Below are positions 4,249 through 22,468 of a stretch of DNA of 64,000 nt, piece by piece. This DNA is from an uncultured bacterium. Its GTDB lineage: Bacteria > Patescibacteriota > JAHJAL01. The stretch spans positions 1,813 through 65,812 of the forward strand of contig CALKWM010000020.1 of assembly GCA_938004065.1 (NCBI GenBank), given 5' to 3'. Position 1 is the first letter of the stretch. The number at the start of each line of letters is the position of its first letter. The notes beneath the pieces are model-generated. The model was not told the origin of the DNA and made no database searches. It worked only from the letters and a program-made list of their open reading frames with translations. Both the position numbers and the translations under genes were made by a program.

Positions 4249-4251
4249 TTT

Positions 4252-4388
4252 GCGTGTATGAGAAGTTTCGCCGACTTCCTTATTATTCATTATAGAGGAG
4301 GCGAAATTTGGGTGAAAGAAAAAGTGCAACCTTTGAAAATATTTAACGCACTTTTTCTTGAACCTCATACACGCTGTTATACGCTGTT
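4252..4388 (+). repeat. Structured repeat module B, copy 1 (always 3' of module A via a ggctaacgt junction)
   Basis: gcgtgtatgag...ctcatacacgc is a terminal inverted repeat. Inner stems are tttcgcc/ggcgaaa and aaaagtgc/gcactttt. Confidence 0.8.
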
Positions 4389-5048: not shown

Positions 5049-5068
5049 GTTTGAAATTTTAGTATAGG

Positions 5069-5352
5069 GCGAAATTGCGTATAATGGGCGGCGTTTATGC
5101 AACGTCTTGTATGGACGAAATCGTAAGATTTCGGACAGACGGGATGTAGCGAAGCGGTGCATAAACGACAGTTGTGCGAAGCTCCGCCTAAGCACATACT
5201 GGCGTGAAACGCCGCCCATTGTGCAAAATGAAGCGAAGCGGAATTTTGCACAACGTATCGGCATATCTGATGTTTGCCGTAGCGTAGCGGAGGCAAATAT
5301 GGGTGGAGGCTTTTGTATAAAAGCCGTAACCAGATATGCCGTGTTAGCTGAT
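5069..5352 (+). repeat. Mosaic repeat module E (A-like 5' part + B-variant 3' part)
   Basis: It begins attgcgtataatgggcggcgttt (cf. attgcgtataacgtgccgcggct of A). Its stems are aatgggcggcgttt and aaacgccgcccatt. It ends with ggaggcaaatatgggtggaggctttt...agccgtaaccagatatgccgtgttagctg, as the 341-472 variant does. Confidence 0.7.
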
Positions 5353-5419
5353 GTATTCCTTTTCTTTTTTCCGACAGCAGTCGGAATTGTTTTAAAAAAT
5401 TTTCAAATTTCTTTTTACG

Positions 5420-5537
5420 TTTTGGATTTTGGGCAGAGGGGTTAGGGGTGAATGCCCAAAATTCAAAACACAATATTTCTTTTTCGTTTGAGGGAGGGGC
5501 AAGAGGGGAATTAAAGGGGTGAATTGCCCCGACCGAA
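5420..5537 (+). repeat. Twin-hairpin repeat module C, copy 1 (3' of a minus-strand gene)
   Basis: attttgggca-gaggggttaggggtgaa-tgcccaaaat, then ggggcaa-gaggggaattaaaggggtgaa-ttgcccc. Both are perfect stems. Confidence 0.8.
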
Positions 5538-5543
5538 TTCTAC

Positions 5544-6535
5544 TTACTTGTTTTTGTATGGTGTCCATTGGGGGTTTTCTTTGATATATTCTTTTAAATA
5601 ATTAAGCGTTTTATTAGAATATTTTTGCACTTTTGATGTTTTTCCAGATTTAATCGAGGTGTGATATTCAGGATTATTTAATAATTTTAAATGTTTTATT
5701 AATTTTTGAATAAAATATGATGTTACATTCATTATACGAGAAAGGTCTGATTGTAAAAATGGATAATCAACTTCAGGATTACTTTTTTTGACTAAAACTG
5801 TAAGTGATTCCGATGTCTTTTTTGCTTTATTTGTAGTAATTTCAGATTTGTATCCTTTTGACGTTTCTACTGGCACTATAATAACATTCTCTTGCTTGTT
5901 TGTATAATCGTTTATTGACAAATGTCGACCAATTCTAGCTTTTTTTTGTTTTGATTTTATGTCATTTAGCCAATCCTTGTGACTAATAAATGTATTTTCA
6001 TTTTCGGTTTCGGCAAACTTGCAAGCACGATCAAGAATATATAACGCTCTATTTTTTTCTGACTTTGATTTTCTTGAGTATGCAAATAATCTACCTATCT
6101 TGTGTGAGTAAAATGTATGATCTTTAAATGCGACAGATAGATAATTTTTATCAAACTTTATAAAATATGATCTAAATTCTTCCTTTAGAATTTTATGAAA
6201 AGATTTTAAAGACCAGTAAATTAAGTGAGTTATGATTTCATCATCAAGATCGGGATAAATATTATGTAGTGATTCATTTCTTAAAGATATAATTTGTTGA
6301 ATTGTTTGATTTTCTTCCAATGATATTAAATGAGCTACATGGTGTAATTGATTGACTGCTTTATTAAAATTGCCTTGGAAAGCAGTTCCCATGCTTGCGC
6401 ATTAAATATTACTGATGCTTGCCTAGAGTGCGATCCCTCAACTCTATTGAACATTTCTATGCTTAATTTTGCAGCGTTTATGGCTGTATTCACGTGGTAT
6501 TGATATTTCATTATACGTGATTTTCTTTTTGCCAT
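5544..6535 (-). CDS. Hypothetical protein split over two overlapping frames (6335..6535 and 5544..6392); possibly frameshifted, with an N-terminal R-x4-H (HEPN-like) motif
   Basis: The two minus-strand ORFs overlap by 58 bp in different frames, directly downstream of the large MTase. The upstream piece contains AINAAKLSIEMFNRVEGSHSRQ, an R-x4-H pattern. Confidence 0.3.
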
Positions 6536-6536
6536 A

Positions 6537-9500
6537 TTATTTTATTGAATTTTCTACAATTTCAATTTCCTCTGGCGTAAGTTCGTAGAGTTTATAAACA
6601 AGCTGATCAATTTGCGATTCAAGATTTTTAGTATCCGCGTCTTTATTTTGTTTTTTGAGAGTTAAAATTTGATCAACTAATTTTACTAATGAATCTTGTG
6701 ATTCCTGACTGTTACGAATAATAGGAATTTGTGACATAGAGCCATTTTTTTGAGCTAAAAAATATTTATATCCACCACCTGCGTCCTTACCCTCATTTTT
6801 ATACCAAAAATTTAAAAGCTTTGAATTTAAAATAGCGACAATGTATTTTAATGCTAAGTCTGAATTTTCTTTTTTTAATAAAACAGGAACATTACCCACG
6901 GTAAAATAATTATCATCATCATAACTAAAACGATTTTCATCTGAGCGATAAGGTGTTAAAATTTTTTCTTGTTCAAAAAATTCCTTTTTTCTTGGCCAAT
7001 TTATGCTATACCATGGTATCTTGCCACTAACGCACTCTCGTTTTTTTTCTAATAAAACACGATATTTTTCAAGGTGTTTTTTTATATTTGGATACTTTTC
7101 TATGTGATGATCTTTTGTTATATAAATTAAATAATGTCTTTTGCTTCTTCTATTGGTAGCAAATTTCTTTACTTCATCAGTTGTAATCCAATCTTTTATT
7201 AATTCCTTTTTTTCTTCCAAATTTGGGCTTATTTCTGTTAAATCATTTTCTGTTAAGATAAAAATGCCTTTATTGGCTTCCCAATTTTTATTATATTTTG
7301 TTGCCAAAGTATTTGTAACTTTATCCGCACCTGTAATTATCCCTTGTTTAATTTCACAATATTCTGAAATAGGTTTACCTTTTTTCTTAATTTTATTTAT
7401 TAAATCTAAAACATCGGAAGATTTTGCATTTTCTGCGGGGATATCAATAATTAAATCATTCCCTTTATATAATTGTTGTTGTTCGAGGGAAGCGTAAAGA
7501 GATTTTTTATCTGACCAATCAAAAATAGATCTAAGAATTTCCGAATCAGCAAAACCTTTATTTTGCGTGCTACATATATTCGCTAAAAAATTTTTATCTG
7601 TGTTTTTTTCTAAAATTGTTATTATATTATGTTGCCCTAGAGCTGATTTGAATATTTTTAAATCATTGAAATTGATCAACTTTTTTATTATAGTACGTTT
7701 TTTAAAATCTTCTCTCAAGATTTTTGCCCCATTGGAAGATAGATAATAATTTGTTGTTATAAAAGATAGTTGTCCACTTTCTTTTAACAAATTTAATGAT
7801 CTATGAAAAAAGAAGTAGAACAAATCCATTCTACGTTTGTAAAAATTACCAAGAGACCCCATTCTCACAATTCTAAATATTTCTTTATGTCCTTTTTCAC
7901 CAACATACGGTGGATTTCCTATCACAACATCAAAGGCTTGAACCCCGTGCATTAATTCCGGATCGTAAAATTCTGAAGATGAGCTAATATCAAACGGTTT
8001 ATAGCTTTTTAATTGCTGTGTTTTTTTGTTATCAAACAAACTAGCATTTTGCGTAAGCTTTAGATAATCCTTTTGCAATTTTTCTTTTTTTATTTTGCTA
8101 CTTGTTTTGAAATATTCATTCCGAATAGTTATCAATTTATCTTTTAGATCATGGTCGGTAAGAAATGTTGCTTGCTCAGTGTTATCAAGCGGAATAAGTG
8201 TGTTGGCGCAAACAAATTTAAACTCAAGGTTTGGCAATGGGTCAACCTTTTCACCTTCTGGAATATCCACAATTATTGAAAGCCAAGCTCGCAGACGAGT
8301 GATCTCAATGGCTGTTTGTTCAATATCCACACCATAAAGTGATCGTGATAAAATATCTCGTTTTAATCCCGAAATATCTTTTTCAAATTTTGGATCAAGG
8401 CGAGAATATACTTTCACGAGTAAATGAAGCATGCCCATCGGAAAAGCACCAGATCCAACCGCAGGATCAAGCACTGTGAGAGGAGATTCTGTTTTTGAGC
8501 CTTCAAGCGCTTTTATAATAGCTTCACGATACGGCTTCCAATCACGACGTTTATTTTGATCCTGATCACGGAATATTGCTTCAGGCATACGCACAAGCTC
8601 TTCTATACGACGATCACGATCTGGGGCTTCTGGAACTTTAGTCTTGAGATATTCAATCAAGGATTGCTCGCACATATAGCTCACGATTTCTCGCGGAGTA
8701 TAAAAAGCACCGGTGGCTTTCTTTTTGCTATTGCCCGTATTTTCGTCAATTTGCTCTGCAAGCAAACTCTCAAAAATACGCCCCAACATTTCAGGATCAA
8801 TAGCGACATGCTGGAATTCCGGACTACTTTCATCAACTGTAAAATTGTATTTATTTAAGGTTGTAAAAAGTTGATTAAAATAACCATTTGGAAAAGTTAG
8901 TTTTGGGTCGTTGAAAAAATCAGTCGTGTTTTTATCAAAAAGACCACCGTTCAAATAAGGAGTCAATTTATCGCCGTTATCTCTTTCTAGTTCTTCTCGA
9001 TTTAATACTTCAAAAAAAAGTTTTTCCAGTTGGTTTTTGTAGTATTCTGATTGTTTTTCCGGATCAATCACCGAAAAATAATTAACATTATTATTTACTA
9101 AATTTTTCTTTTTCAAAAACCAAATAAAAAGCAAACGTCCAATAAGTCTGGTCGTGAACATTACTGACTGTTTGCGTCCAAAATCTTTTTCAAGATGGTG
9201 TACTAAAATGCTAAAATGTTCAACCAATTCAAGGTAAAATTTGCGATTGATCGGTTCAAAGTTGAAGCTTTCCCAAAGTTTTGAGTGTAAAGTATTTTTT
9301 AATTCAGCCTGATCAGCAATCTCTAATTCGGAAAGTTTCGCCCATTGAGTAAATATTTCTAATTGGGTTGGGGTAATATGATCTTTTAATTCAAGAGCGC
9401 GAATCTTAAATCTATTAGAAAGCAAAACTATTATACTATCGCAGGTTTCTGGTACAACAAAATCAATCCCTATATTTTTATAATCATTTGAAAGTGCATC

Positions 9501-9824
9501 TTCAAAATTTGGAGTAAGACCAATAATCCACGAAAGATTTGTTTTGCTAGTTTTTTTGACCCAAAAAAGTTTAAGATCAACTGGTTTTCCGTCTTCGTGC
9601 GGTAATTCATACGCCGCCGCTTGGCGAGCAAAACCTGGAGCAAGTTGAAATCTCGTTAATTCCGCGTCTACGCGAGGTATATTTACCAAAAATCTGTCTG
9701 TGGTTTTTATATTGAGTAGCCCAACCAGTTCCGTCGTAATTTTTTCCGCGACATCAAAAGATCTTTCATTTGAAAGTTGTTTTAAGAGTTGGTCAAATTT
9801 GTTTTTTATCTCTAGGGTATTCAT
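6537..9824 (-). CDS. Large gamma-class N6-adenine DNA methyltransferase (Type IIG / PglX / Type ISP-MTase-like) with a long N-terminal domain and a C-terminal putative TRD
   Basis: GAFYTPREIVSYM (motif I/X region) and VIGNPPYVGEKG (motif IV NPPY) are present. About 350 aa precede the MTase core and about 400 aa follow it. The start lies 4 bp after the stop of the upstream helicase gene. Confidence 0.8.
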   Translation of the reverse strand: MNTLEIKNKFDQLLKQLSNERSFDVAEKITTELVGLLNIKTTDRFLVNIPRVDAELTRFQLAPGFARQAAAYELPHEDGKPVDLKLFWVKKTSKTNLSWIIGLTPNFEDALSNDYKNIGIDFVVPETCDSIIVLLSNRFKIRALELKDHITPTQLEIFTQWAKLSELEIADQAELKNTLHSKLWESFNFEPINRKFYLELVEHFSILVHHLEKDFGRKQSVMFTTRLIGRLLFIWFLKKKNLVNNNVNYFSVIDPEKQSEYYKNQLEKLFFEVLNREELERDNGDKLTPYLNGGLFDKNTTDFFNDPKLTFPNGYFNQLFTTLNKYNFTVDESSPEFQHVAIDPEMLGRIFESLLAEQIDENTGNSKKKATGAFYTPREIVSYMCEQSLIEYLKTKVPEAPDRDRRIEELVRMPEAIFRDQDQNKRRDWKPYREAIIKALEGSKTESPLTVLDPAVGSGAFPMGMLHLLVKVYSRLDPKFEKDISGLKRDILSRSLYGVDIEQTAIEITRLRAWLSIIVDIPEGEKVDPLPNLEFKFVCANTLIPLDNTEQATFLTDHDLKDKLITIRNEYFKTSSKIKKEKLQKDYLKLTQNASLFDNKKTQQLKSYKPFDISSSSEFYDPELMHGVQAFDVVIGNPPYVGEKGHKEIFRIVRMGSLGNFYKRRMDLFYFFFHRSLNLLKESGQLSFITTNYYLSSNGAKILREDFKKRTIIKKLINFNDLKIFKSALGQHNIITILEKNTDKNFLANICSTQNKGFADSEILRSIFDWSDKKSLYASLEQQQLYKGNDLIIDIPAENAKSSDVLDLINKIKKKGKPISEYCEIKQGIITGADKVTNTLATKYNKNWEANKGIFILTENDLTEISPNLEEKKELIKDWITTDEVKKFATNRRSKRHYLIYITKDHHIEKYPNIKKHLEKYRVLLEKKRECVSGKIPWYSINWPRKKEFFEQEKILTPYRSDENRFSYDDDNYFTVGNVPVLLKKENSDLALKYIVAILNSKLLNFWYKNEGKDAGGGYKYFLAQKNGSMSQIPIIRNSQESQDSLVKLVDQILTLKKQNKDADTKNLESQIDQLVYKLYELTPEEIEIVENSIK

Positions 9825-9827
9825 AGG

Positions 9828-12800
9828 CTAATTATTATCTCTAGAAAATCCAAATATAGGGTTTACAGAAACTACTTTAACAGCTTGCTTCTCTTCAGGT
9901 AATATTTTCTTGATTTTTTCCAAAATACTGTCTCTTTCGGATAATTTTCCCTCGCGGATAACTTCACGAAGTTGTTTAGTTAATTTTCTAGCAATACGAC
10001 CATGAAAAACATTTCTCGTCATGAGTAGGCTTTCCAAACGCGCGCGATCAGACGCACTCCAGCCAACATTCATTGCCTCATCTAAAATTGTTTGTTGGGA
10101 AGGTGTTAATCTCTGAATATTACTATCAAAACGAGTTATTTGTGGGCCATTCTTTGATACATATTCAAGGTGTAGTTTCTTATTAAGAGTAATATTGTCT
10201 TTTTTTCTTTCTTGATCATTTGATCTTAATGTTTGCAGAGCTTCACCAGTAAGCAACACATCCAAAGCATTGGCACTTTTATTATTACGAAAAAAAGTAA
10301 ATTGTTTTTGATTGTTGGAAAATTCTGATTGAGAAAAAACAAGGACTTCCGGTGATTGCAAAATTTTCGTTTGATCCACGACACCCCACTTAAATACAGG
10401 TATTTTTTCTAAAGCATTTTGTGCTTCTGGTGTTGCTTGTTCTTTGAAATGTTTTAAATCCGCAATAAACTGATCGTCAGTAAAAACATCAGCTTCTTTT
10501 TCTAAACGCAAATATTCTGCAGTAGCAGTGTCGCTATCTGTGTCATAAATACCCTTATAATTAATTGGGTTAATTTGCTCTCCTAAAACAGATGAATCAC
10601 TTCCGATCGTTGCGTTGATCAGACTTATTTTATCTTCAAGTTTTGTTACCAAGCCAAGAAATTGATCTAACTCTTTATTTGGAACAATATTGATTACCTC
10701 AACCTCTGAATGAGGTGATCCAAGCCTATTAATACGACCGTTTCTTTGAATCATGCGAACCGGGTTCCAATGAAGATCATAATTTATAAGCAATCCACAA
10801 TCTTGTAAATTTTGTCCTTCAGCAAGAACATCAGTACTAAACAAATAAGTTAATTCCTCTTTTTCAGAAACACGTTCGCGCGCATCTTTTGCAACAGGAG
10901 CAAACCTTTCCGCTGATCGCATTGCATCTGCTTTCTCTTTACCAGATACAAATTCTGTATTTTCGGTAGTGAAAATATTTTTTTTATTATTTAATACATT
11001 TTCTTTTAAATATTTTATTGTGTCAGCAAAAAAAGAAAAAACAAGTATTTTTTTATTTGGATTTTTTTTAGCAATTTTAGTCACTTTTTCTAAAAATACT
11101 GCCAGTTTTTTATCTTTATTTTTAAACTGTTCGGTTAATTCTATTATTACGGCAAGTATTTCCTTTTCAGTAGCAATGTCTTCTTTAAGAGCTTTAATAT
11201 TGTGAGAATTTGTAGATACTTTTGTTCCAAGTTTTTTTGCTTTTTCAAGAATTTCTTCATCTGTTAAATCCAAATTTTCTCCATCCTCTGCTTCATATTC
11301 ATCTAAAATATCATCTATGTCAGAAAGATTTAGTAATAAGTTTTCTTGAAGAAAAATATCTTCGAATGTTTTTAATCTTTTTTGATATCTTTTTACTGAC
11401 GCTAGTAGTGCATATGATGATGATTCAAATCTTTTCAACCATACAATACGCAATAATCCATACATACTTAATTGTAGTCCGATTTTTTCTTTTGTTTCTT
11501 TGGTAAATTTAATATTTTTTATTTCATCAAGAGTCTTACCATAAACCTTGTGATCATACATTGATGTTCTATATGGTATAAAAGATAAAGAAAGAATATA
11601 TTGATATAAACGATAAATAATTGATTTGCCAGTGATATTCATGGTCTCTTTTTTTAATTCTTCTAATTGTCGTAATGGGTGAATTAAGATGTCAGTTGTT
11701 TCCTGAATTTTTTCAACAGGGGTTTTTTCAATTGACTCAATAACTGAATCAATTATTATACTTTGATATTCGCCGGAATTAAAAGTTTCATTGGAGACCT
11801 TGATTTTAGGAAAGAAAAACTCTTTACCATCTATTTCCAAACCATTACCGTTCAATTCTTCTTCAATACTTTGACGAGTATTTCTAATAACAAATTCACG
11901 TAAAATAGGATCAATTACTTGGCGTGCTTCTTTATAAATAGGTGTCATATCATTACCTTGCGCGCGATTTTGACTAATTTTTTTCTTTAGCTCAAATAAA
12001 GCATCGAAAAACGATCTTGATTTAATAACACCTTCAGAATTACGAACATTGACCTGTAAAAGATCTTGTTCACCACGAGTACCAAGCAAAATTTGATTTG
12101 TTAAGTCATCAATAGAATTATTTACTGGTGTTGCAGTAAGAAGTAGTGTATTGGCATCTGAATTATCAACTAACCATTCGCTTATTTGTTGAAAACGTTT
12201 ACTATTATGAGATCGCAAATTATGTGATTCATCTATAACAAATAAACTAATTGGTATATATTGGTCTTTTTTTCTTTCTTCATCTATTTGATTTTTATTT
12301 TGCATAGAAATAACCGTGATGCCTAGAATTTTCTCTCTAGCTATTTCGTTTTCCCACTGACCAACTAATGATTTTGGAGCAATCACAATTATTCTTCGTC
12401 CTATATATTGACGAATAACGCCAATTGCAGTAATTGTCTTACCTAAACCAACCGAATCTGCAAGCATTGCAACGCCGTTTTTATCTAAACGCCAAAGTAT
12501 TTGTTTGACACTTCTTTCTTGAAAATTTTGTAATTTACGTGAAGATAATGCTTCAATTTTTCGATCCTCTTTTAAAAGGTCTCCATACATATGATCAAGT
12601 GTCTTGATATACATTTCATACGGACTAAAAAGCATTTCTCCATGAATAGAAGTATCTATTAACTCTATAAACTTACCGGTCCATTCGACACAGCCCTCAT
12701 CTGTCCAAACCTCTTCAAACCAAGACAAGTGCCCATGTTCCTGATCCTTATTTTTAGGATTAAACTGGACTACGCGCTGATCGTCTTCGCCGGCATTTAA

Positions 12801-13262
12801 TTCGCGATTTGAAGTAATGCCATTTTTTGTAAAATTAGAAGAACCTATGACACCGATTGCTGTTTCGGATTCAAAATTACCAAAAATATAACATTTAGCA
12901 TGCAAAAATGCTTTTTTAAAAACTTTTACTTCAAGGATTTTATTATCAACTAATTGTTTTAACTCTTTTACTGTTGGTTTTAAATTACTGTCGATTTTTA
13001 GTTTTTGCAGATCTTCAAAAATATCTTTGTCTGGAAAATCTGGTTCAACTTCATTTAGTTGGTGTCGTGGGATTAAGGGTTCTCGACCAATAAGTAAACG
13101 AATTTTTTTATATTTTTTCAAATGAGGTAAAAGCAAAGCAGTCGCCTCAAGATCCCAATATCCAGTAGCAATAGAAATTTCATCAAAGTTAGCACTAACA
13201 GAAATTAGACTATTTAATAAATCTACTCTAGTATTGTCGATGATTTTTGGAAATTTTTTCAT
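9828..13262 (-). CDS. PLD-family nuclease fused to an SNF2/SWI2 helicase (SF2 ATPase)
   Basis: An N-terminal HKD motif is intact: LHAKCYIFGNFESETAIGVIGSSNFTKNG. Helicase motifs present are LADSVGLGKTITAIGV (I), VIDESHNLRS (II) and LLLTATPVNN (III). The C-terminal lobe reads EGQNLQDCGLLINYDLHWNPVRMIQRNGRINRLGS (V-VI). Confidence 0.85.
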   Translation of the reverse strand: MKKFPKIIDNTRVDLLNSLISVSANFDEISIATGYWDLEATALLLPHLKKYKKIRLLIGREPLIPRHQLNEVEPDFPDKDIFEDLQKLKIDSNLKPTVKELKQLVDNKILEVKVFKKAFLHAKCYIFGNFESETAIGVIGSSNFTKNGITSNRELNAGEDDQRVVQFNPKNKDQEHGHLSWFEEVWTDEGCVEWTGKFIELIDTSIHGEMLFSPYEMYIKTLDHMYGDLLKEDRKIEALSSRKLQNFQERSVKQILWRLDKNGVAMLADSVGLGKTITAIGVIRQYIGRRIIVIAPKSLVGQWENEIAREKILGITVISMQNKNQIDEERKKDQYIPISLFVIDESHNLRSHNSKRFQQISEWLVDNSDANTLLLTATPVNNSIDDLTNQILLGTRGEQDLLQVNVRNSEGVIKSRSFFDALFELKKKISQNRAQGNDMTPIYKEARQVIDPILREFVIRNTRQSIEEELNGNGLEIDGKEFFFPKIKVSNETFNSGEYQSIIIDSVIESIEKTPVEKIQETTDILIHPLRQLEELKKETMNITGKSIIYRLYQYILSLSFIPYRTSMYDHKVYGKTLDEIKNIKFTKETKEKIGLQLSMYGLLRIVWLKRFESSSYALLASVKRYQKRLKTFEDIFLQENLLLNLSDIDDILDEYEAEDGENLDLTDEEILEKAKKLGTKVSTNSHNIKALKEDIATEKEILAVIIELTEQFKNKDKKLAVFLEKVTKIAKKNPNKKILVFSFFADTIKYLKENVLNNKKNIFTTENTEFVSGKEKADAMRSAERFAPVAKDARERVSEKEELTYLFSTDVLAEGQNLQDCGLLINYDLHWNPVRMIQRNGRINRLGSPHSEVEVINIVPNKELDQFLGLVTKLEDKISLINATIGSDSSVLGEQINPINYKGIYDTDSDTATAEYLRLEKEADVFTDDQFIADLKHFKEQATPEAQNALEKIPVFKWGVVDQTKILQSPEVLVFSQSEFSNNQKQFTFFRNNKSANALDVLLTGEALQTLRSNDQERKKDNITLNKKLHLEYVSKNGPQITRFDSNIQRLTPSQQTILDEAMNVGWSASDRARLESLLMTRNVFHGRIARKLTKQLREVIREGKLSERDSILEKIKKILPEEKQAVKVVSVNPIFGFSRDNN

Positions 13263-13295
13263 AATAATTTAGTTTACCTGTTGTTATTGTATTCG

Positions 13296-13354
13296 TTTTC
13301 CCCTTATTAATAAATCGTTTTCGTAGCGGAGCGGAGAAAACACCTTATTCCCCT
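13296..13354 (-). promoter_or_regulatory. Conserved 58-bp leader element D, copy 1 (upstream of the PLD-SNF2 gene)
   Basis: The minus strand reads agaggggaataaggtgttttctccgctccgctacgaaaacgatttattaataaggggaa, about 35 nt upstream of ATG 13262. Confidence 0.5.
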
Positions 13355-13398
13355 CTATAATTAAAGAAAAAGAAATTTGAAAATTTTTTAAAACAATT

Positions 13399-13590
13399 GG
13401 GCGATAGCCCAAAAAAGAAAAGGAATATTTCAGCTAACGTTCCAGCGTATGCGATGTTTTTGCGACCAACGGGAGCAAAAATATGGGAGAGGGGCGAGCC
13501 GAGCCCCGAACCGCATACGCTGTGTTATACGCCCCGACGACCGAAGGGAGGAGAGCGCAGCGGGGCGCGACTGAAAGGAGCGAGTTCAAA
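13399..13590 (+). repeat. Mosaic repeat module F (same family)
   Basis: It contains gctaacgttccagcgtatgcgatg ... ccgcatacgctgtgttatacgc (B-like arms), ggagcaaaaatatgggagagggg and a GC-rich tail. Confidence 0.65.
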
Positions 13591-13655
13591 AAATATTTTT
13601 CATTCAATTTCATTTTGACAGGCTTTTTATTCAATAATTATAAATTTGTTTTTTT

Positions 13656-13768
13656 GTTTTGGATTTTGGGCAGAGGGGTTAGGGGTGAATGCCCAAAATC
13701 CAAAACTCCTTATTCTGTTTGAGGGAGGGGCAAGAGGGGAATTAAAGGGGTGAATTGCCCCGACCGAA
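13656..13768 (+). repeat. Twin-hairpin repeat module C, copy 2
   Basis: About 95% identical to copy 1. It lies 7 bp from the stop of the 13775..14695 MTase gene. A partial relative is at 2545-2576. Confidence 0.8.
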
Positions 13769-13774
13769 AACATT

Positions 13775-14695
13775 TTATTTCAATATTTTGTATTTTTTCT
13801 TATCAAGCAACTTTAGATCGCCTTTGCTCTTCCAAATTTCTTTGAAATCTTTGTTTCTCATAGTCCTAATGTGTCCAAGGTAAACTGAAACAAAATGCCC
13901 GTTGATTTTTGTTTCTTTTGTTGCCTTGATATTTTTTTCAGCAATTTTTACATAATCAGAATCAAGCTCAATTCCAATGTATTTTCTACCTAGTTGTTTA
14001 GCCGCAACCGCAGTTGTGCCAGTTCCCATGAATGGGTCAAGTACTACATCATCTTCATCTGTGGTCATTAAGATCAATCTCTCAAGTAGAGGGATTGGGA
14101 GTTGACAAGGATGTTCATCTCTTCGCTTTTTATGCCGGATCCGATGAATATCATTCCAAACATCAGAAAGTAATGGCCCAAAACCATGGGCTTGATCTTT
14201 TTTACCGCCGTAATCTTTTAAAAATTCATCACAAGTTCTACATCTTGGGTGCGGATATCTAATGTCATTAAATTTAAAATCTTTATGAGATTTTGATTTT
14301 GTATAATATAAAATTCCATAATGATTTGGTAATAAAGTTTTACCCATTGGTGCGCCGCCAGAATCCCAAGCAATCCAATGTCTGAAATATGCAATTTTAT
14401 TTAAATGCTCCGCATAATGCGAAAGCCAACGAGGAATATTGTGAACAAAAATTGCACCGGTTGGTTTTGTAATCCTGACCATTTCGCTCATCCAATCATT
14501 ACACCAATTCAAATAATCTTGCTTTTCTTTTGAATCCTCATAGTGATTATATTTTTTCTTTAAATTAAAAGGCGGATCGGCAAAAGTCATATCTACCGAA
14601 TTATCCGGTATTTCTTTCAATACCTTTAGGCAATCGCCCTTAACAATTGTATTTATATAGTTTTTTTTCATAATTAAGATATTGTTAAATTCCAT
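13775..14695 (-). CDS. Beta-class N4/N6 DNA methyltransferase
   Basis: Motif IV MTFADPPFNL is N-terminal and motif I DPFMGTGTTAVAAKQLG is C-terminal. It is a paralog of the 1248..2174 MTase. Its start overlaps the stop of the upstream gene by 22 bp. Confidence 0.85.
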   Translation of the reverse strand: MEFNNILIMKKNYINTIVKGDCLKVLKEIPDNSVDMTFADPPFNLKKKYNHYEDSKEKQDYLNWCNDWMSEMVRITKPTGAIFVHNIPRWLSHYAEHLNKIAYFRHWIAWDSGGAPMGKTLLPNHYGILYYTKSKSHKDFKFNDIRYPHPRCRTCDEFLKDYGGKKDQAHGFGPLLSDVWNDIHRIRHKKRRDEHPCQLPIPLLERLILMTTDEDDVVLDPFMGTGTTAVAAKQLGRKYIGIELDSDYVKIAEKNIKATKETKINGHFVSVYLGHIRTMRNKDFKEIWKSKGDLKLLDKKKYKILK

Positions 14696-16362
14696 ACATT
14701 CATAGCAATTTCTGCTAATTTTTCTTGCCGATTTTTTATTGACTCAGCTGACCATTCATTATAATCGTCATTTATCATTTTAGTTATCCATAAATCAGAA
14801 CTTTGATATCTAGATTTTTTATCTGTAAAAGGAGCATTTCCTTCTTCTGAGTTTGGTCGTGATTGCATTAATGTTAAGTTGCCAATACGATTTTTATATT
14901 CATTCAGTTCCTCTTCGGAAAAATTAGGCCAATTTTCGCTTGGATTTTTTGGGAGAATATGCTCTAAATTAACAGCGCTGGGATCACTATTAACTAAAAG
15001 TTCCGGATCATCTATACCACCTCTTTTATGATTTTCGATGGCCCTCAAATAATAGCGAGCATATTTTTCAGTGCTAGATTTTGCATAAATAAACTTATCT
15101 TTAAATTCGCTATCAGATGGAATAATATGTTGAAGAGCGGTTTTTAAATCCGTAGCATTATTTATTTTCCCCTCCGCTATATCTTTGGCCTTTTTAGCAT
15201 ACTCGACTTCAAGTGTACCTCCTCCAAGAGAGCCAGTTATTAAATTTCTAACGAGCCATGAAACAATTAATTTTAATGATTTTCGAATCTCTTGTTTGTT
15301 GGTGAATTTTTTGAGAATTGATAATAGCAAAGGCCTGTATTGTTCCAAATTAAAAAAATTTAATGTTTCAATGTATTGTTTTACTTTTGGATCAAAATCG
15401 TTCCAATATTGATGATTATGATTAACGATTGCTAAATATAGAGAAGTATCATTTTTTAAATTATTAACAAAAGTAATTGATTGTGTCGTATTGCGAATTT
15501 GACTTTTTATATCATTGTACAACTCCCTGTTTTTTTCTCTGGTAAGTCCGTTTTGGGCAGACCAATAATGCTTAATATATCTCAATATTAAACTTTCATT
15601 TTCTGCTGTTTCTATTTGAGATGTCATTTCAATCCAAGTATTTTGAATTTCCTCAATCCGATCACTTGCTTTGCTATATAAATAATTTTTAAGAAGATCT
15701 ACTTGCGCTAATTCCAAGCCCCTATCATTAAGAGTTTCGCAAATTGTGAAAGCGTTGGCTTTACTTGGGACAGTTATTGTCACGACTTTAAGTTTGTCAG
15801 ATATAAATTCTATCCAGTCATGCAAAATATTCAAATTCGCATCCGATAATTCGGCCAATTTATTTATTTTTTGAATTGATAGTTGTTTGGTATTTTTTAT
15901 TCTTTCGTGAGATTCCTTTGTTGACAAAGTAGCTTCATTTTTATTAACAATATATTCTCTAAAAAATATATTATCCAAATTGCCCAATTTAATTTTAGGA
16001 AGATGCTCTCCTGTACGCCTGTTAAATATACTCAAAAAGTCTTGTTGTATAGAATTGGCTTGTTCGTCTTCACTTCTTTGTCTAAAAAATTGTTCTACTG
16101 CTGATAAAAAAATATAAATGGAAGTAATTCTTTGTTGGCCATCAACGATCTCGAGCTCGTCAGAGTTTTCTTTTTCAGAAAAAACAATAGTTCCGAGAAA
16201 ATATTCATTTTCATTATTGCTAATTGCATTATGAATATCATTGAACATATCATCAATATGTTTTTTTTCCCATGCATAAGGACGTTGATATATTGGCACC
16301 GCGAGTTGATGCTCTTTTATCACCTTTCCGATCCCTTTAATTTGAAAGTTAATGCTACTCAT
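14674..16362 (-). CDS. DUF262(ParB-like NTPase/nuclease)-DUF1524(HNH) protein, GmrSD-like
   Basis: The N-terminus shows the DUF262 DGQQR signature in ...IYQRPYAWEKKHIDDMFNDI...EIVDGQQRITSIYIF. The C-terminus has an His-Me finger-like LEHILPKNP. Gene order matches GmrSD/SspE/BrxU-type enzymes. Confidence 0.75.
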   Translation of the reverse strand: MSSINFQIKGIGKVIKEHQLAVPIYQRPYAWEKKHIDDMFNDIHNAISNNENEYFLGTIVFSEKENSDELEIVDGQQRITSIYIFLSAVEQFFRQRSEDEQANSIQQDFLSIFNRRTGEHLPKIKLGNLDNIFFREYIVNKNEATLSTKESHERIKNTKQLSIQKINKLAELSDANLNILHDWIEFISDKLKVVTITVPSKANAFTICETLNDRGLELAQVDLLKNYLYSKASDRIEEIQNTWIEMTSQIETAENESLILRYIKHYWSAQNGLTREKNRELYNDIKSQIRNTTQSITFVNNLKNDTSLYLAIVNHNHQYWNDFDPKVKQYIETLNFFNLEQYRPLLLSILKKFTNKQEIRKSLKLIVSWLVRNLITGSLGGGTLEVEYAKKAKDIAEGKINNATDLKTALQHIIPSDSEFKDKFIYAKSSTEKYARYYLRAIENHKRGGIDDPELLVNSDPSAVNLEHILPKNPSENWPNFSEEELNEYKNRIGNLTLMQSRPNSEEGNAPFTDKKSRYQSSDLWITKMINDDYNEWSAESIKNRQEKLAEIAMNVWNLTIS

Positions 16363-16364
16363 AA

Positions 16365-17354
16365 TTATTTTTTTATAAAAGTGTCAAGTAATAGCTTTTC
16401 AAACCGTTTTAATTCTTCCTTATGAAAAGTAAAAACATCCTCATAGGCTGTAACCATTCTTTTTAGATCGCCTTTTCTGACATACCAACCAACACCATCC
16501 ACAAAACCAATAAATTTCGCCTTTGGATAATGCGACTTGATAAGTGAATCAATAGAAATCTCTGTTTTTGATTTATCGCCTTGACCGGATGAAGTTGTTA
16601 CCAAAAATGAGCTTTCGGCAATAATTAACGGATTTTGTTTGTTCGGAATAATAAAATCCATCGTTCTTTTATTATCGGGGGCATTGTCAATTAGTTCGCT
16701 GAGGTCGCCCTTTTCAAACGGTATTTCTAAATGATTTAAAATTTCTTCAATTAAAATTTCCGGATTATTTTCTTTCATTCCGGAATAGCTGCCTTTTTCT
16801 TTATATCTAATTAAAGTGTCGATCATTTCCGGCAATTCAAATTTTAGTTTTGAAATACTTAGTTTCTTCAATTCAAATAGCGGAATAGTTTTTGTTAAAA
16901 ACGGAACTGTTGAACCTTCAAAGAAAATATTTAAAATTCCTTTTCTGAAAAATTCATTTTCTTTTATAAATTTTGCTATTTGAGCGTCTGACCACTCTTT
17001 CAGATTATTTATATCTTCATCCTTAAACCATTTGTCCTTATAAACCAACTTACTCAATTCTGGATCATTAACAACTCTAATAATTGTAGTCAATCTTTTT
17101 AAGGTTTCGTTTGAAAATCCGGTCAAAGCAAGCAACGCCCTAAGACCATTTTCTTTTTCAATTAGTAGCTGTTCAAAAAATTCCTTTTTCAATCCCTGTG
17201 TTTCAATATTATTTTTCAATATCAAAAGCATTTCTTTTAACGAGTTTAGATAACCTTCATATTTTTCTTCAAAAGCTGGATTGAAAAAATAAAAAGTATT
17301 TTTATCAATCACAGTTTTAAATTTCAATTCGGTTGTAGGTTTTGTGTATTTCAT
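16365..17354 (-). CDS. Hypothetical protein; candidate restriction endonuclease partner of the adjacent alpha-class MTase
   Basis: The 329-aa ORF sits 5 bp after the MTase stop and 2 bp before the DUF262 gene. It has a possible nuclease core MDFIIPNK...IIAESSF. No confident motif was found. Confidence 0.3.
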   Translation of the reverse strand: MKYTKPTTELKFKTVIDKNTFYFFNPAFEEKYEGYLNSLKEMLLILKNNIETQGLKKEFFEQLLIEKENGLRALLALTGFSNETLKRLTTIIRVVNDPELSKLVYKDKWFKDEDINNLKEWSDAQIAKFIKENEFFRKGILNIFFEGSTVPFLTKTIPLFELKKLSISKLKFELPEMIDTLIRYKEKGSYSGMKENNPEILIEEILNHLEIPFEKGDLSELIDNAPDNKRTMDFIIPNKQNPLIIAESSFLVTTSSGQGDKSKTEISIDSLIKSHYPKAKFIGFVDGVGWYVRKGDLKRMVTAYEDVFTFHKEELKRFEKLLLDTFIKK

Positions 17355-17359
17355 AATTG

Positions 17360-18610
17360 TTATTTTTGATTAGTAAAAAATAATATGGATTCCTCCTTCA
17401 TCGTATTTTGTAACCCCCGGATCGGCTTCTTTAAATTAAGTTCAAATTTTAGTCCTTGTTTTTCTCCAAGCTCAGTGACTTTTGTTTCCAGTCTCACGCC
17501 ATTTGTTTGAATATCGTTTGTGCCAATAATTATAACTATAGGCGCGTTTTTCTTTGATACCCGTTTCATTTCACCAAGGGCTTGATTCATTTTGTCAAAA
17601 TAAATTTCTAATTTATTTTCCACGCCTCGCCCCTGTAGGCCGATCATCTCTTGTCGCAAAACTTCCAGATCGTAGCCGAGATATTCTAATTGGGGCTGAT
17701 CATTTTTTAAATAATCAATAGCAAAAGAATAGGGCGGTGAAGTGATTACTGCGTCCACGCTATTATCACCAAGCGGCAAATTTAAAATACTACCTTGAAC
17801 GATTTTACTTTTTCCGATTTTTAAATCCATTTTTTTTCTTGCTTCTTGAAAATATTTTAACGTTGAAACATATCTGTCCAATACACGCGGGAAAAGTTTA
17901 TCAATAGAAGAACTGCTTCGGCCGGCAAATCCGACGGTATCTAAAAATGCTAATAAAATTATTTCATAGTAGTGTCTTTTTTTATCGTCTTTATTGTTTT
18001 TAAAATATTCTGGAACTTTGTCTTTTTTCAACTTATCCAAAATTTCTTTTGGATTTTTAATAATTGACTCTAAAATTTTAATATCCAAATTTAGAGCAAA
18101 TGTTTTAACTTTTCCCATTAGCTCACAAAATGGGCTTAAATCAACAGAGATAGCATCAATTCCGAGCAAATTAGCCTCAACTGCAACAGTAGAACTCCCG
18201 GCCATTGGATCAAGAACAACATGGCCGGGTTTTATATCAAGTATATTTAACAATGCCCTTATCAGTTGCGGGTGAAATTTTCCACGATATGGAAAAAGGC
18301 CATGAGTTGCGTATCCAGTTGAATATTTCCCGTCTAAAAAGAAAATTTTTGTCCGGAAAGAGCTATTTTTATGAACTTCTTCTAAATTTTGAAGGTTGCA
18401 AGTTTTATAATGAGCTGTTTCTTTCCCGTCAACTAATTTAAAATATGCGCTTCTTTCAACTAATTCTTTTTTTGATAAAACCTCATATTCCCACAAAGCT
18501 AAATCTAATTCAAAAATCTCATCAGTCCCGTCAATGAGATAAAAATTATTACCAAATAGCCTTTCTATGATCGGTTTATGCTTTGTAGTCATGATAGTAT
18601 TATAGTTCAT
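17360..18610 (-). CDS. Alpha-class N4/N6 DNA methyltransferase
   Basis: The motif I-like VVLDPMAGSSTVAVEA precedes AVITSPPYSFAIDY (motif IV) by about 150 aa. This is the I...TRD...IV order. Confidence 0.8.
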   Translation of the reverse strand: MNYNTIMTTKHKPIIERLFGNNFYLIDGTDEIFELDLALWEYEVLSKKELVERSAYFKLVDGKETAHYKTCNLQNLEEVHKNSSFRTKIFFLDGKYSTGYATHGLFPYRGKFHPQLIRALLNILDIKPGHVVLDPMAGSSTVAVEANLLGIDAISVDLSPFCELMGKVKTFALNLDIKILESIIKNPKEILDKLKKDKVPEYFKNNKDDKKRHYYEIILLAFLDTVGFAGRSSSSIDKLFPRVLDRYVSTLKYFQEARKKMDLKIGKSKIVQGSILNLPLGDNSVDAVITSPPYSFAIDYLKNDQPQLEYLGYDLEVLRQEMIGLQGRGVENKLEIYFDKMNQALGEMKRVSKKNAPIVIIIGTNDIQTNGVRLETKVTELGEKQGLKFELNLKKPIRGLQNTMKEESILFFTNQK

Positions 18611-19379: not shown

Positions 19380-19544
19380 TTGCGTATAACGTGCCGCGGC
19401 TGATCCGATCGTGGCCAAAGGCCGCCGCAGGCGAGCCGATGGACATGTCGGATAGCCGCTGTTAGACGACGTCGCGGAGCGACGGAGGATAACGGGGGCG
19501 AAGCCGCGGCACGTTAGACAACGAGCGAAGCGATGTTGGCTAAC
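19380..19544 (+). repeat. GC-rich palindromic repeat module A, copy 3
   Basis: Same sequence as copy 2. It lies 110 bp upstream of the tyrosine recombinase gene. Confidence 0.85.
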
Positions 19545-19653
19545 TAGTATATATACGAAAAGTTTATCTTATAATATACTGAAAATAGTAGTGTATAAGT
19601 TTATCAAGTAAATATTTATTATTTATCTTAATTTTACATTTTTGTAATACTGT

Positions 19654-20466
19654 ATGCAAAAATATTTGGATTTAGCCAAAAGGGAATTGGAGATTAGAAA
19701 TTATAGTTCAAAGACTGTTGCAAGTTATTTAATTTCTTTGAAGAAATATTTTGAATTCAAGAAATTTGATTTCGGTGAATTTGATGAAAACAATTTGAAA
19801 GATTATTTATCGGTGCAAATAAAGCAAAAATTATCTCCTCAAACTATCAATCTCTCATTGAACGCTATTAAATTTTTTTACTATGAGATGATGGGGATAA
19901 AAACCAAGATCAATATTCGGAGTGTGAAAAAAGAACACAAATTACCGGTGGTTTTGTCCAAGGATGAAGTCAAACAAATTATCGATGTGATAAAAAATCC
20001 TAAACACAAATTGATGATTGCGCTCTCTTATAGTGCAGGTTTACGGGTGAGTGAAGTGATAGTGTTAAAAGTTGGAGATTTGGCGCTGGAAGAATTGATT
20101 GTGCATATTAGACAAGCAAAAGGCAAAAAAGACAGAATAAGTTTATTGCCGGAAAAGTTGGTGAATGATATTCGAAATATGATTGTTGGAAAATCTTCCC
20201 ATGATTTACTTTTTGTCAGTGAAAGAGGGGGTAAATTGACAACTAGATCGGCGCAAAAGATTTTTCAAAATGCTTTGCATAAATCCGGCATTAAAAAAGA
20301 AGCGACTTTTCATAGTCTTCGCCATAGTTTCGCGACGCATTTGTTGGAAAATGGTGTTGATGTGCGTTATGTTCAGGAGCTATTGGGCCACGCCAATATT
20401 AGAACAACTCAGATATATACTCATGTTACCAATCCGGCGATTAGAAATATTAAAAGTCCCTTATGA
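19654..20466 (+). CDS. Tyrosine site-specific recombinase (Xer/integrase family)
   Basis: The C-terminal catalytic region reads HSLRHSFATHLLENGVDVRYVQELLGHANIRTTQIYTHV, i.e. R..H-x-x-R...Y. The N-terminus has a SAM-like core-binding region. The stop codon lies inside a 46-bp repeat core. Confidence 0.85.
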   Translation: MQKYLDLAKRELEIRNYSSKTVASYLISLKKYFEFKKFDFGEFDENNLKDYLSVQIKQKLSPQTINLSLNAIKFFYYEMMGIKTKINIRSVKKEHKLPVVLSKDEVKQIIDVIKNPKHKLMIALSYSAGLRVSEVIVLKVGDLALEELIVHIRQAKGKKDRISLLPEKLVNDIRNMIVGKSSHDLLFVSERGGKLTTRSAQKIFQNALHKSGIKKEATFHSLRHSFATHLLENGVDVRYVQELLGHANIRTTQIYTHVTNPAIRNIKSPL

Positions 20467-20590
20467 GCCAAAATACCAAGCGAAAAAAGCATAAGAAAGA
20501 ACAAGAAATTTCGATTCCAATTGCTATGTGACTGGGTTGTTAAAAAATACCCCAAATGTCGGGTGGCGGATGTGGGTGGCGGAGTTTTTT
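20462..20590 (+). repeat. Direct repeat copy 1: truncated duplicate of the 5' end of the SAM-MTase gene, with a K-rich mini-ORF
   Basis: A 46-bp perfect core, ttatgagccaaaataccaagcgaaaaaagcataagaaagaacaagaa, followed by about 80% identity through gatgtgggtgg. It overlaps the recombinase stop codon. Confidence 0.8.
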
Positions 20591-20600
20591 TTAGTGTTAT

Positions 20601-21779
20601 TTATCTTATATCACCGCCCCAGATGTAGTCATCAAATTTGGGAACGTTTTTTCTGCCAATCAGATGGTATTTCTTGATGCCGGCTAAATTTGACAATTTG
20701 GATAATTTGGTTAGATCGTTTTTTGTTGGTGATTCTTTTAATTCTAGAGATACTTTTTTATCCAAGATAAAATCTATCTCATTTCCATTTTTCAATGCAT
20801 AGTAGCGGATATCACCAAAGTGCCGGATCTGATTAAAAAAGGCATTTTCAAATTTTGAACCGCTGTTATTTTCCGATAGAATATTTAATAGTCCATTGTC
20901 GCAAAAATATACTTTTTTTGCTTTTACTATTTCGCGATCAAAGTTATGTGTATGAACGGGCACACGATAAATTAAATAGGTTTTTTCGAAAAATTCCAGA
21001 TATTCTTCAACTGTGTGACGTGATAGATTGGTCAATCTAGCTAGTTTGTTATAATCAAGGCGAGTACCTACTCTTGAAGCAAGCATTTTGATTAAGCTGA
21101 AAATTTCTTTATCTTTACGAAAATCAGAAAGTGATTTGATATCGATATTTACATAAGAACTAATAATATCGTTTAATAATTCTTTTTTTAAATCTTTTTT
21201 CTTGGTTAATACAACTTCGGGAAATCCGCCGAAATTGATGAATTCTTCATAGTAGAATTTTAGTCTTTCATATTCAAATTCAGAGAAATTTTTAGCAAAA
21301 GATTTTTTCTCTTGGTGATAGATTTCTTTGAAGGTTAAAAATTCGCCAAAATCCAAGGGGAACATATCAAAAACAATCTTTCTACCGGCAAGAGATTGGG
21401 TAAAAAGATTTTTAAGATAATATGAACTGGAGCCGGTAACCAAAAATTTAATGTTATGGTGGTCGTAAAGATATTTTATAATACTAGTGATGTTTGGTAA
21501 AAACTGGATTTCGTCGATGGCCAGATAAATTTTCTTTTTTGGATCTATTCCCATCCGGGCAAGATCTAGTAAGATATTGTCATAATTTTTTTGGTCAAAA
21601 ATACCTCGGTCAGACAATTTTTCCAAATCGAAATATGCCTTATTTTCGGATTTAATTTCTGATAAAAGTTGTTTTAATATAGTAGTTTTACCGACTCGTC
21701 TAATACCAGTTATTACAATTACCTGTTTTGCACTAATGTATTTCTGAATTTTTTGGTAGATTTTTCGTGGAAATATCAT
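20601..21779 (-). CDS. AAA+ ATPase of the AAA_14/DUF4143 family
   Basis: Walker A motif VITGIRRVGKTT is present. The length and organisation are typical of AAA_14 + DUF4143 proteins. Confidence 0.7.
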   Translation of the reverse strand: MIFPRKIYQKIQKYISAKQVIVITGIRRVGKTTILKQLLSEIKSENKAYFDLEKLSDRGIFDQKNYDNILLDLARMGIDPKKKIYLAIDEIQFLPNITSIIKYLYDHHNIKFLVTGSSSYYLKNLFTQSLAGRKIVFDMFPLDFGEFLTFKEIYHQEKKSFAKNFSEFEYERLKFYYEEFINFGGFPEVVLTKKKDLKKELLNDIISSYVNIDIKSLSDFRKDKEIFSLIKMLASRVGTRLDYNKLARLTNLSRHTVEEYLEFFEKTYLIYRVPVHTHNFDREIVKAKKVYFCDNGLLNILSENNSGSKFENAFFNQIRHFGDIRYYALKNGNEIDFILDKKVSLELKESPTKNDLTKLSKLSNLAGIKKYHLIGRKNVPKFDDYIWGGDIR

Positions 21780-21919
21780 ATTTTTTGTTATTATTAAAAT
21801 ATAAGTATATTGTAACTTTAGTAATACTATTTAGTCAATGGGATTGCAGGTGTTTTTTTATGATATCTTGTAGTTATTAATCGGAGTGAATATTTACAAA
21901 ATTACTAGAGGTTGATGAG

Positions 21920-22047
21920 TTATGAGCCAAAATACCAAGCGAAAAAAGCATAAGAAAGAACAAGAAGTTTCGGTTCCAGTTACTGAGTGACTGGATTGTT
22001 TCTAAATATCCAGAATGCAAGGTAGCCGATGTGGGTGGAGGTAAAGG
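21920..22047 (+). repeat. Direct repeat copy 2 (intact 5' end of the SAM-MTase gene)
   Basis: Same 46-bp core. It encodes the mini-ORF MSQNTKRKKHKKEQEVSVPVTE, followed out of frame by the MTase N-terminus. Confidence 0.8.
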
Positions 22048-22468
22048 TTTGCTGGCGTATTTGTTGCATGAAAAAGGATGGGAGGTAACGGTAATTGATC
22101 CGGTTAAAACATTGCCATTATTGAAGTTCAAGGATTTTGCTTGTGGAAATAGGGTTAAACTGGATGAAAAAGATTGGGATAAAATTGATTGGATAGAAAA
22201 GGAGTTTGATATAGGTATGATTTCGGATTTTGATTTAATCGTGGGTTTGCATGCGCATGGGGTAAATATGAAAATAATTGAGGGATGTGCAAAGCATCAA
22301 AAGAAATTTGTACTGTTGCCTTGTTGTGTGATAGAGGAGCCGATAGAAAAGAAACCAGGGATTAACTGGTTTGATTCACTGGTAGGATATGCGAGTGGTT
22401 TGGGATTGGATGCGAAAACTGATGTGCTAAATTTCAAGGGGAAAAATATGATTTTGTATCTGGAGTAA
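22031..22468 (+). CDS. Small class I SAM-dependent methyltransferase; start uncertain
   Basis: VADVGGGKGLLAYLL is a glycine-rich SAM-binding motif I. The frame is open upstream to 21926 without an ATG. The track starts at a GTG. Confidence 0.5.
   Translation: MGGGKGLLAYLLHEKGWEVTVIDPVKTLPLLKFKDFACGNRVKLDEKDWDKIDWIEKEFDIGMISDFDLIVGLHAHGVNMKIIEGCAKHQKKFVLLPCCVIEEPIEKKPGINWFDSLVGYASGLGLDAKTDVLNFKGKNMILYLE

Follow-up and report, generated by a model that had tools for sequence, protein, structure and literature searches.

How did an ATPase gene come to stand between two copies of one short sequence, the first at the end of a recombinase gene and the second at the start of a methyltransferase gene? 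The question is raised by positions 19654–22047 of a 64,000-nt stretch of DNA from an uncultured member of the Patescibacteriota (contig CALKWM010000020.1 of assembly GCA_938004065.1; the whole stretch is hereafter the window), where a tyrosine recombinase gene is followed by an ATPase gene of the AAA_14/DUF4143 type on the opposite strand and by the gene of a small S-adenosylmethionine (SAM)-dependent methyltransferase. A preliminary description took the repeat for an attL/attR-type duplication created by integration into the 5' end of a gene. The direct repeat pair is real and marks an insertion. The reading preferred here, to which we give a probability of roughly 55%, is that the pair is the scar of a recombination event in which foreign DNA with a stand-alone defence-type ATPase was captured at the recombinase–methyltransferase junction; the adjacent recombinase probably did not make the insertion.

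The repeat search returned 122 nt at 84% identity (20461–20582 against 21920–22041), the best 81-nt segment reaching a BLAST E value of 1e-25. In the pairwise alignment the homology runs out at about 20583/22042, so that the repeat described earlier exists with slightly corrected coordinates (20461–20583 and 21920–22042); its first 47 nt (TTATGAGCC...ACAAGAA) are identical and the 76-nt arms beyond them are about 74% identical. The perfect core, read previously as 46 bp, is therefore confirmed in its identity and is one nucleotide longer by pairwise alignment, not shorter. The homology begins 2 nt ahead of the methyltransferase ATG. The 3' end of the recombinase gene does lie inside the repeat, as had been stated, but it contributes its last codon and stop (TTA TGA) only, not several last codons. 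The ATPase gene, on the minus strand, is the sole gene between the copies, in agreement with the preliminary description. A third copy of the repeat or core, sought as the mark of a distant attL, was found neither in the 64-kb window nor in the related locus L001, and the 17-nt filler between the left copy (copy A) and the ATPase stop codon (20584–20600) gave no homologue when searched.

The state of the locus before the insertion can be judged from its relatives. In L001/L002 the methyltransferase is 79–81% identical to that of the window and is present in one copy, no ATPase is found, and the downstream synteny (tRNA, YjbQ, DUF5684, SRAP) is shared; in L089 it is 76% identical, again in a single copy and with the ATPase absent. 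These empty-site relatives are different species, at 76–81% amino acid identity, and are the closest available. The synteny comparison proposed in the preliminary description thus came out as foreseen there, with the ATPase missing and one repeat copy in the relatives, and it places the insertion at the methyltransferase 5' end. By this comparison, the novelty in the window is the ATPase together with the second copy.

The recombinase, on the other hand, was there before. Directly upstream of the methyltransferase, L001 contains the recombinase promoter region with the first ~55 nt and the last ~30 nt of the gene, and L089 contains a remnant of the same kind; across the two loci the first 30–55 nt and the last 30–40 nt are retained and abut the ATG. 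Therefore a recombinase gene with the ATGA stop/start overlap adjoined the methyltransferase in the ancestor of the three lineages. This overlap, kept in the remnants of L001 and L089, speaks against the former proposal that the neighbouring recombinase is the integrase of a nested or partial ATPase element. Both remnants measure about 85 nt and keep both gene ends (L001 5919–6000, L089 ~390–476), which suggests that the recombinase has been internally deleted repeatedly; a 10-nt direct repeat, GATTAGAAAT, lies near both ends of the window gene (19692–19701 and 20439–20448). In the more distant L090, HTH_20–SdpI stands immediately ahead of the methyltransferase, and in L001 the same pair is parted from it by ~4.8 kb of small minus-strand genes and the recombinase remnant. 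Neither the recombinase nor this ATPase was found near the methyltransferase in any of 73 loci from other species (0/73). A general linkage of recombinase and methyltransferase was discarded on this count, the closest recombinase homologues also having different genes downstream. On the far side of the methyltransferase, an HI0933-like flavoprotein gene (22475–23710) separates it from the tRNA gene, which in L001 follows it directly; this gene may have arrived in the same import as the ATPase.

The nature of the two copies was deduced from the way in which they differ. In the arm, 20 of 76 nt differ between copy A and the right copy (copy B), and the 17 codons changed in the methyltransferase frame comprise 12 synonymous and 5 conservative non-synonymous changes; the synonymous/non-synonymous counts in the other two frames are 1/14 and 1/13. 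Third positions account for 13/20 differences (P=0.004), and none of 20,000 random-mutation simulations reached 12 synonymous codons. Copy A retains all residues that are near-invariant in the family, the five changes inside such residues all being synonymous. Selection of this kind cannot act on a 41-codon fragment, and copy A therefore still belonged to a functional gene shortly before its truncation. The pairwise distances in the arm (A–B 20, A–L089 16, A–L001 17, B–L001 12, B–L089 21, L001–L089 20) and its informative sites, five of which group A with L089 and B with L001 as opposed to one for A with B and two for A with L001, are suggestive of copies A and B being the starts of two alleles of the methyltransferase gene, each from a lineage of its own.

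The core behaves in another manner. Over 44 sites no difference was found between A and B, every other pair differs at 5–7, and A and B share derived states which are absent from the relatives. An identical core with derived changes common to both copies looks, for that reason, like a conversion tract and not like a conserved att core. Taken together, core and arms are suggestive of a mosaic of alleles from two lineages, the left edge of which has been homogenised over a short tract.

The same tract appears to have damaged the methyltransferase gene. The family (665 relatives detected, mostly of 175–190 aa) is common in Patescibacteria and occurs also in other phyla, and the ten closest full-length homologues open with MSQxTxRKKPRxNxKFRFQLL, followed later by DVGGGKG. 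In the window the ATG frame, which reads MSQNTKRKKHKKEQE..., ends at a stop after 22 codons, and the conserved sequence goes on in the +1 frame as RKNKKFRFQLLSDW.... Both copies have AAG CAT A AGA where L001 and L089 have AAG CCA AGG (AAG CCN AGR in the homologues), that is, a 1-nt insertion and two substitutions, all three within the identical core; the insertion is unlike every homologue. All the conserved residues of a Methyltransf_32-like protein are encoded, but an intact open reading frame (ORF) was not found, the insertion at 21951 parting the start codon from the body, and the NCBI annotation gives a truncated 139-aa product only. Copy B, previously called the genuine 5' end of the methyltransferase gene, is indeed the start of the complete gene, but of one whose reading frame is broken. 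Outside the converted tract the gene is undamaged and retains every invariant residue. A frameshift lying in the converted tract of an otherwise intact gene indicates that the inactivation is probably recent, and by its sequence the complete gene appears to be a fresh pseudogene.

The lysine-rich peptide of 22–23 aa, held earlier to be conserved in both copies, results from translating the identical core in the ATG frame, and past the core 5 of its 7 last residues differ. Nor do the nucleotide changes preserve it, as had been thought; it is in the +1 frame that they are synonymous, and not in the frame of the peptide. The mini-ORF was therefore dropped as a frame artefact, the conservation sitting in the +1 frame. 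Two ways of rescuing the methyltransferase were likewise discarded, since a –1 slippage at A AAA AAG runs straight into TAA, and after a +1 shift at the stop of the mini-ORF the FRFQLL motif would be missing. One may speculate that a transcript with one A fewer in its A6 run would give back a 181-aa protein (MSQNTKRKSIRKNKKFRFQLL...). Joining the recombinase to the methyltransferase through genetic code 25 (TGA=Gly) was abandoned, the long ORFs being normal under table 11.

The ATPase is a full-length match to the PADLOC family PDC-S01 (1.8e-66) with the Walker A motif GIRRVGKTT, the Walker B motif LAIDEIQ and the element EIDFIL...ELK; DUF4143 is counted among the PD-(D/E)XK families (PMC3424549). 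In its full-length match to the hidden Markov model, and as a single-gene module in or beside a defence island, the window gene resembles PDC-S01, a defence function being predicted. No description of the way in which PDC-S01 spreads was found in the literature searched. The nucleotide homology with three other loci (L006, L100 and L101) starts at the –35 box, 66–67 nt upstream of the gene, and stops at the stop codon; the shared unit is the gene with its own promoter, moving alone. This promoter is conserved across the genomes, and a perfect 10-bp inverted repeat (TATTACTAAA ... TTTAGTAATA) brackets its –10 box; the repeat is probably an operator serving autoregulation. Close homologues of the ATPase number about 3,000, and those at 80–84% amino acid identity occur in Kuenenbacteria, Uhrbacteria and other groups of Patescibacteria, in unrelated housekeeping contexts with no recombinase nearby. 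An element with fixed ends or terminal repeats was ruled against, the conserved unit extending from the –35 box to the stop codon and the short contigs showing no terminal overlaps. GC skew was set aside as a foreign mark, the value of the ATPase unit (+0.10) falling within that of native minus-strand genes (0.005 to 0.28). No relatives of the ATPase were found in the viral contig collection, and a metagenome scan with the methyltransferase returned one distant locus only.

One of these contexts is instructive. In L101 the 3' end of an upstream VTT-domain gene is repeated directly on either side of the ATPase (4704–4885 and 6201–6383); this 183-nt repeat is 95% identical and consists of 125 identical nt, a clustered patch of differences and 29 identical nt. 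As in the window, the full-gene copy lies on the promoter side of the ATPase and the fragment past its stop codon, at a distance of 21 nt (17 nt in the window). There is no recombinase within 5 kb of the L101 ATPase, and it follows that long mosaic flank repeats accompany the arrival of the ATPase, not a recombinase. Beside a second ATPase paralogue in L101, a 209-nt repeat of 99.5% identity (6495–6703 and 9784–9992) brackets a GCS2–GATase segment; genomes of this kind may often have long repeats on either side of acquired DNA.

The preferred capture model would proceed as follows. DNA of a related lineage carrying the ATPase would have been taken up and joined by general recombination, through one of two routes. 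In the first, known as homology-facilitated illegitimate recombination, homology would have served as an anchor on one side and an illegitimate joint would have formed 17 nt past the ATPase stop codon, so that the other allele persisted as a 5' stump. In the second, a circle bearing a piece of its former host's methyltransferase gene would have entered by a Campbell-type single crossover. Either route gives the observed topology. The first 47 nt would then have been homogenised by gene conversion or gap repair, at the event itself or later between repeats 1.46 kb apart, and this conversion tract would have brought the 1-nt insertion, possibly copied from the pseudo-copy, into the complete gene. 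Homology-facilitated illegitimate recombination and insertion-duplication (Campbell-type) integration are familiar from the naturally transformable Acinetobacter baylyi and Streptococcus pneumoniae. The likeness consists in a single homology anchor, a resident homologue truncated or duplicated beside the new gene, mosaic repeats and conversion near the crossover; the window differs in being known from sequence alone, and in the foreign end lying close to the ATPase stop in two independent cases.

Several observations weigh against capture by general recombination. No donor genome with an A-type allele or with the order ATPase–spacer–methyltransferase was found, and the 74-nt spacer (21846–21919) has no homologue in the window or in any locus searched; an attempt to explain it as a decayed second attI site or recombinase promoter failed, the alignment scores equalling those of shuffles (P 0.5–0.9). 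Every model of this class needs a second step, conversion, for the perfect 47-nt core. In both repeat-flanked cases the foreign DNA ends 17–21 nt past the ATPase stop, a regularity not expected of random illegitimate joints, and in four other ATPase contexts the flanks share no repeat. On the plus strand, G|TT stands at either end of the insert (GGAG|TTTTT and TGAG|TTATGA); it is the triplet of the recombinase-family junctions, so that the enzyme may have made one joint at a secondary site. Finally, the lineage signal comes from 76 nt and 8 informative sites, which are small numbers.

Alternatively, the copies would be true attL and attR sites, a 1,459-bp circle (core, A arm, ATPase and spacer) having been integrated through site-specific exchange in the core by the adjacent recombinase, in trans or at a secondary site. 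The topology agrees with a Campbell-type product, a perfect 47-nt core is common to both junctions, the sites are empty in L001/L002 and L089, the insert ends have the G|TT of the recombinase family, and the catalytic residues of the enzyme are all present. We nevertheless consider this origin unlikely, as the pair does not enclose the recombinase, whose junction with the methyltransferase is older than the insertion; the core has neither attI nor hairpin features, hairpin scans being blank there; the arms are homologous coding sequence at 74% identity, where unrelated arms would be expected; exchange alone cannot yield the derived changes in both cores; and L101 has a like repeat with no recombinase within reach. 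Of the preliminary interpretation, the insertion at the methyltransferase 5' end stands, and the att arms, the att core and the role of the integrase find no support. Prophage e14 and phage 21 in the icd gene of Escherichia coli offer a known case of a perfect core followed by a diverged duplicate of the target gene end with largely synonymous differences, and the window shares both traits. There, the integrase is encoded by the element, whose gene fragment takes the place of the displaced icd end so that the gene stays intact; in the window, unlike e14 and phage 21, the foreign fragment is cut off and serves no purpose, the integrase is not enclosed by the pair and the gene has a broken frame.

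Duplication in situ is the other route to the same final architecture: the ATPase would have been inserted with a 122-nt target duplication, by staggered breaks or template switching, after which the copies diverged and 47 nt were homogenised anew. The L101 repeat, at 95% identity, is what a young duplication would show, and the fragment copy stands 17–21 nt past the ATPase stop in both cases. A dead fragment should, however, change at random, and 12 of the 17 changed codons are synonymous, including all five in near-invariant residues; copy A moreover has more states in common with L089 than with copy B, and the differences in L101 are clustered, not scattered. Hence we regard duplication in situ as improbable.

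A chimera assembled from co-occurring strains would be conceivable for a metagenome-assembled genome, one public contig of which ends, to judge from its coordinates, in a repeated leader region at ~13.7 kb, yet it is very improbable here, seeing that the NCBI contig DAIUKQ010000006.1 (GCA_036848155.1) and an ENA contig are 100% identical to the window over the stretches retrieved, that copy B and the fragment–ATPase junction have just 11 nt in common, not enough to lead an assembler astray, and that a 47-nt identity is below the usual final k-mers. DAIUKQ010000006.1 appears to break in the leader and hairpin repeats at ~13700, which the ENA contig reads through; such repeats fragment assemblies, and arrays of the kind described below may be hidden for that reason.

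Table 1. Coordinates of the features discussed, in window positions unless a locus is named.
Feature	Position	Strand	Remarks
XerA-like tyrosine recombinase	19654..20466	+	270 aa; catalytic R..K..HxxR..H..Y; Pfam Phage_integrase 2e-45
Copy A core	20461..20507	+	47 nt: recombinase last codon and stop, then methyltransferase codons 1–15; extra T at 20492
Copy A arm	20508..20583	+	probable 5' fragment of a second methyltransferase allele, truncated at ~codon 41 (motif I DVGGG); groups with L089
Junction filler (GTTTTTTTTTAGTGTTA)	20584..20600	.	17 nt, from copy A fragment to ATPase stop codon
AAA_14 + DUF4143 (PD-(D/E)XK) ATPase, candidate defence gene PDC-S01	20601..21779	-	Pfam 1.3e-33 (AAA_14), 8e-26 (DUF4143)
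ATPase promoter region	21780..21845	-	TTGACT-18-TACAAT, palindrome around –10 box; promoter scan 10/12
Spacer	21846..21919	.	74 nt, directly upstream of copy B
Copy B core	21920..21966	+	identical 47 nt; extra T at 21951
Copy B arm	21967..22042	+	runs on into rest of methyltransferase gene; groups with L001
Small SAM-dependent methyltransferase gene, frameshifted	21922..22468	+	ATG frame stops at 21988-21990; body in +1 frame to 22468
attI-like junction AAC|TAGTATATATACGA	19542..19558	+	110 nt upstream of recombinase start
Defence-module array	622..18610	-	BglII restriction–modification (R-M); AAA_33/zeta-like; HD protein; PDC-S19-like; type IIG enzyme with HKD-Snf2 helicase; methylase with GmrSD; DpnII-like R-M
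attC-like hairpins	18913-19046; 2338-2459; 4245-4378; 5252-5345; 13436-13526	+ (18913-19046)	between modules
GC-rich ORF-less unit, 154 nt	19391-19544; 18762-18915; 4094-4247	+ (19391-19544)	98-100% identical copies, bounded by TAAC
AT-rich leader copies	window 18611-18749, 13297-13435; L095 4268-4420; L097 2246-2341; L093 2982-3123; L089 1-67		

The recombinase and its upstream region are more interesting than the repeat pair. By family the enzyme is XerA-like: it scores 226.9 bits against NCBIfam NF040815 (XerA; cutoff 220) and 212 bits, under the cutoff of 265, against the integron integrase model TIGR02249, and it aligns end to end with the XerA structures 5hxy and 4a8e. The alignment with IntI4 falls into two pieces, residues 186–199 facing IntI4 191–246, so that ~42 aa of the IntI-specific domain are missing. 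Integron integrases are held in PMC9668308, which cites Messier and Roy (2001), to be set apart by the additional domain around patch III. Close homologues of the recombinase number thousands in Patescibacteria.

The nearest of them (82–83% identical), from several samples, share 98–99.6% nucleotide identity rightward from a point 109–118 nt upstream of the gene. Three such loci, L094, L095 and L097, are 98–99.6% identical to the right of this junction and unrelated to its left, where the samples have an acetyltransferase and other single genes, a DUF6119–helicase–methylase module, a GmrSD–methylase module or HpaII R-M with Vsr. The breakpoint, ...AAC|TRGTAYATATAYGA, is the same in six lineages, L093, L001 and the window among them, always 109–118 nt upstream of the recombinase; the motif AAC|TRGTAYATATAYGA occurs once in the window. 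The defence array to its left has a GC skew of about –0.04 as compared with +0.36 for the rest of the window (20000–64000), which holds genes of both orientations, and the left end of the window is still within the array.

Between the modules lie hairpins with a common register, AAC, 4 nt and an 11-bp stem with a TAT centre and a 2-nt bulge, closed by the returning stem, 1 nt and GTT. Ten hairpin sites, chosen for a perfect 8–9 bp stem and not for the register, showed 90% pairing in this register with 31 double-sided changes (0/500 shuffles), against 30–42% in slid controls. The strict pattern has 10 matches in 971 kb on both strands, 7 of which are in arrays upstream of a recombinase, all in one orientation. 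The 154-nt units, GC-rich in an AT-rich genome, are found once exactly at the junction and twice at the AAC box of hairpins; in L095 the flanks of the unit are present and the unit itself is absent. It folds into a Y shape (–53.4 kcal/mol, z –7.5) and resembles a tiny mobile cassette. A search of Rfam for a known RNA gave no match to the unit or the hairpins. The modules of the window have 1–4 genes each and a conserved leader in common, L094 containing single-gene units. This AT-rich leader (TTCCCCTTATWAATAAATCGTTTTC..AGCGRAGCGGAGAAAACACCTTATWCCCCT, a small hairpin and the Shine-Dalgarno-like ATAAGGGG) stands ahead of the first gene in quite different defence modules and may be a shared promoter or a regulatory 5' untranslated region.

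From these features the recombinase seems to run an integron-like array of defence cassettes on its 5' side (window 1–19558; L093–L098), and the repeat pair lies outside this array. We propose tentatively, at something short of even odds, that the enzyme is the integrase of an undescribed integron-like platform of Patescibacteria, with a XerA-type recombinase, a fixed site 110 nt upstream, AAC/GTT hairpins, multi-gene defence cassettes and the 154-nt unit; the ATPase would possibly have been captured at a secondary G|TT site. As in integrons, among which chromosomal ones with defence genes are known, a tyrosine recombinase gene diverges from a one-directional array, a fixed AAC/GTT junction lies beside it, the cassettes appear to end in hairpins that resemble attC sites (R box, unpaired spacer, L box, bulged bases), and near-identical strains differ in content. 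Unlike integrons, the recombinase is XerA-like without the IntI-specific domain, many cassettes are multi-gene operons with their own leader where those of integrons are mostly promoterless single ORFs, and the hairpin stems are nearly perfect. No paper on integrons in Patescibacteria (Candidate Phyla Radiation) was found in the searchable literature, which is no proof of novelty.

A rival to such a platform is a single Xer recombinase with a linked dif-like site that is exploited by stacked elements, for which XerS/difSL, a single recombinase with a linked dif site (PMC2731167), is the model. The assignment to XerA by NF040815 and by structure is in its favour, and in both systems a single Xer-like recombinase has a presumed site beside its own gene, at which elements stack. 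The window junction, however, lies where gene orientation diverges, not converges; the module boundaries are long hairpins, not 28–31-bp duplex sites; and the recombinase gene, deleted in L001 and L089, is non-essential there. A shift of GC skew does occur at ~19 kb, but the left side is the inserted array.

The repeat pair would thus be an ordinary but instructive scar of a lone defence gene entering a small streamlined genome through general recombination, and it shows how a leftover pseudo-copy can inactivate the adjoining gene by way of a short conversion tract. If it is true that this recombinase family runs arrays without the IntI domain, integron-like capture would be older or wider than current detection tools see, and the fast turnover of defence islands in this uncultivated, host-dependent radiation of bacteria would have a concrete mechanism.

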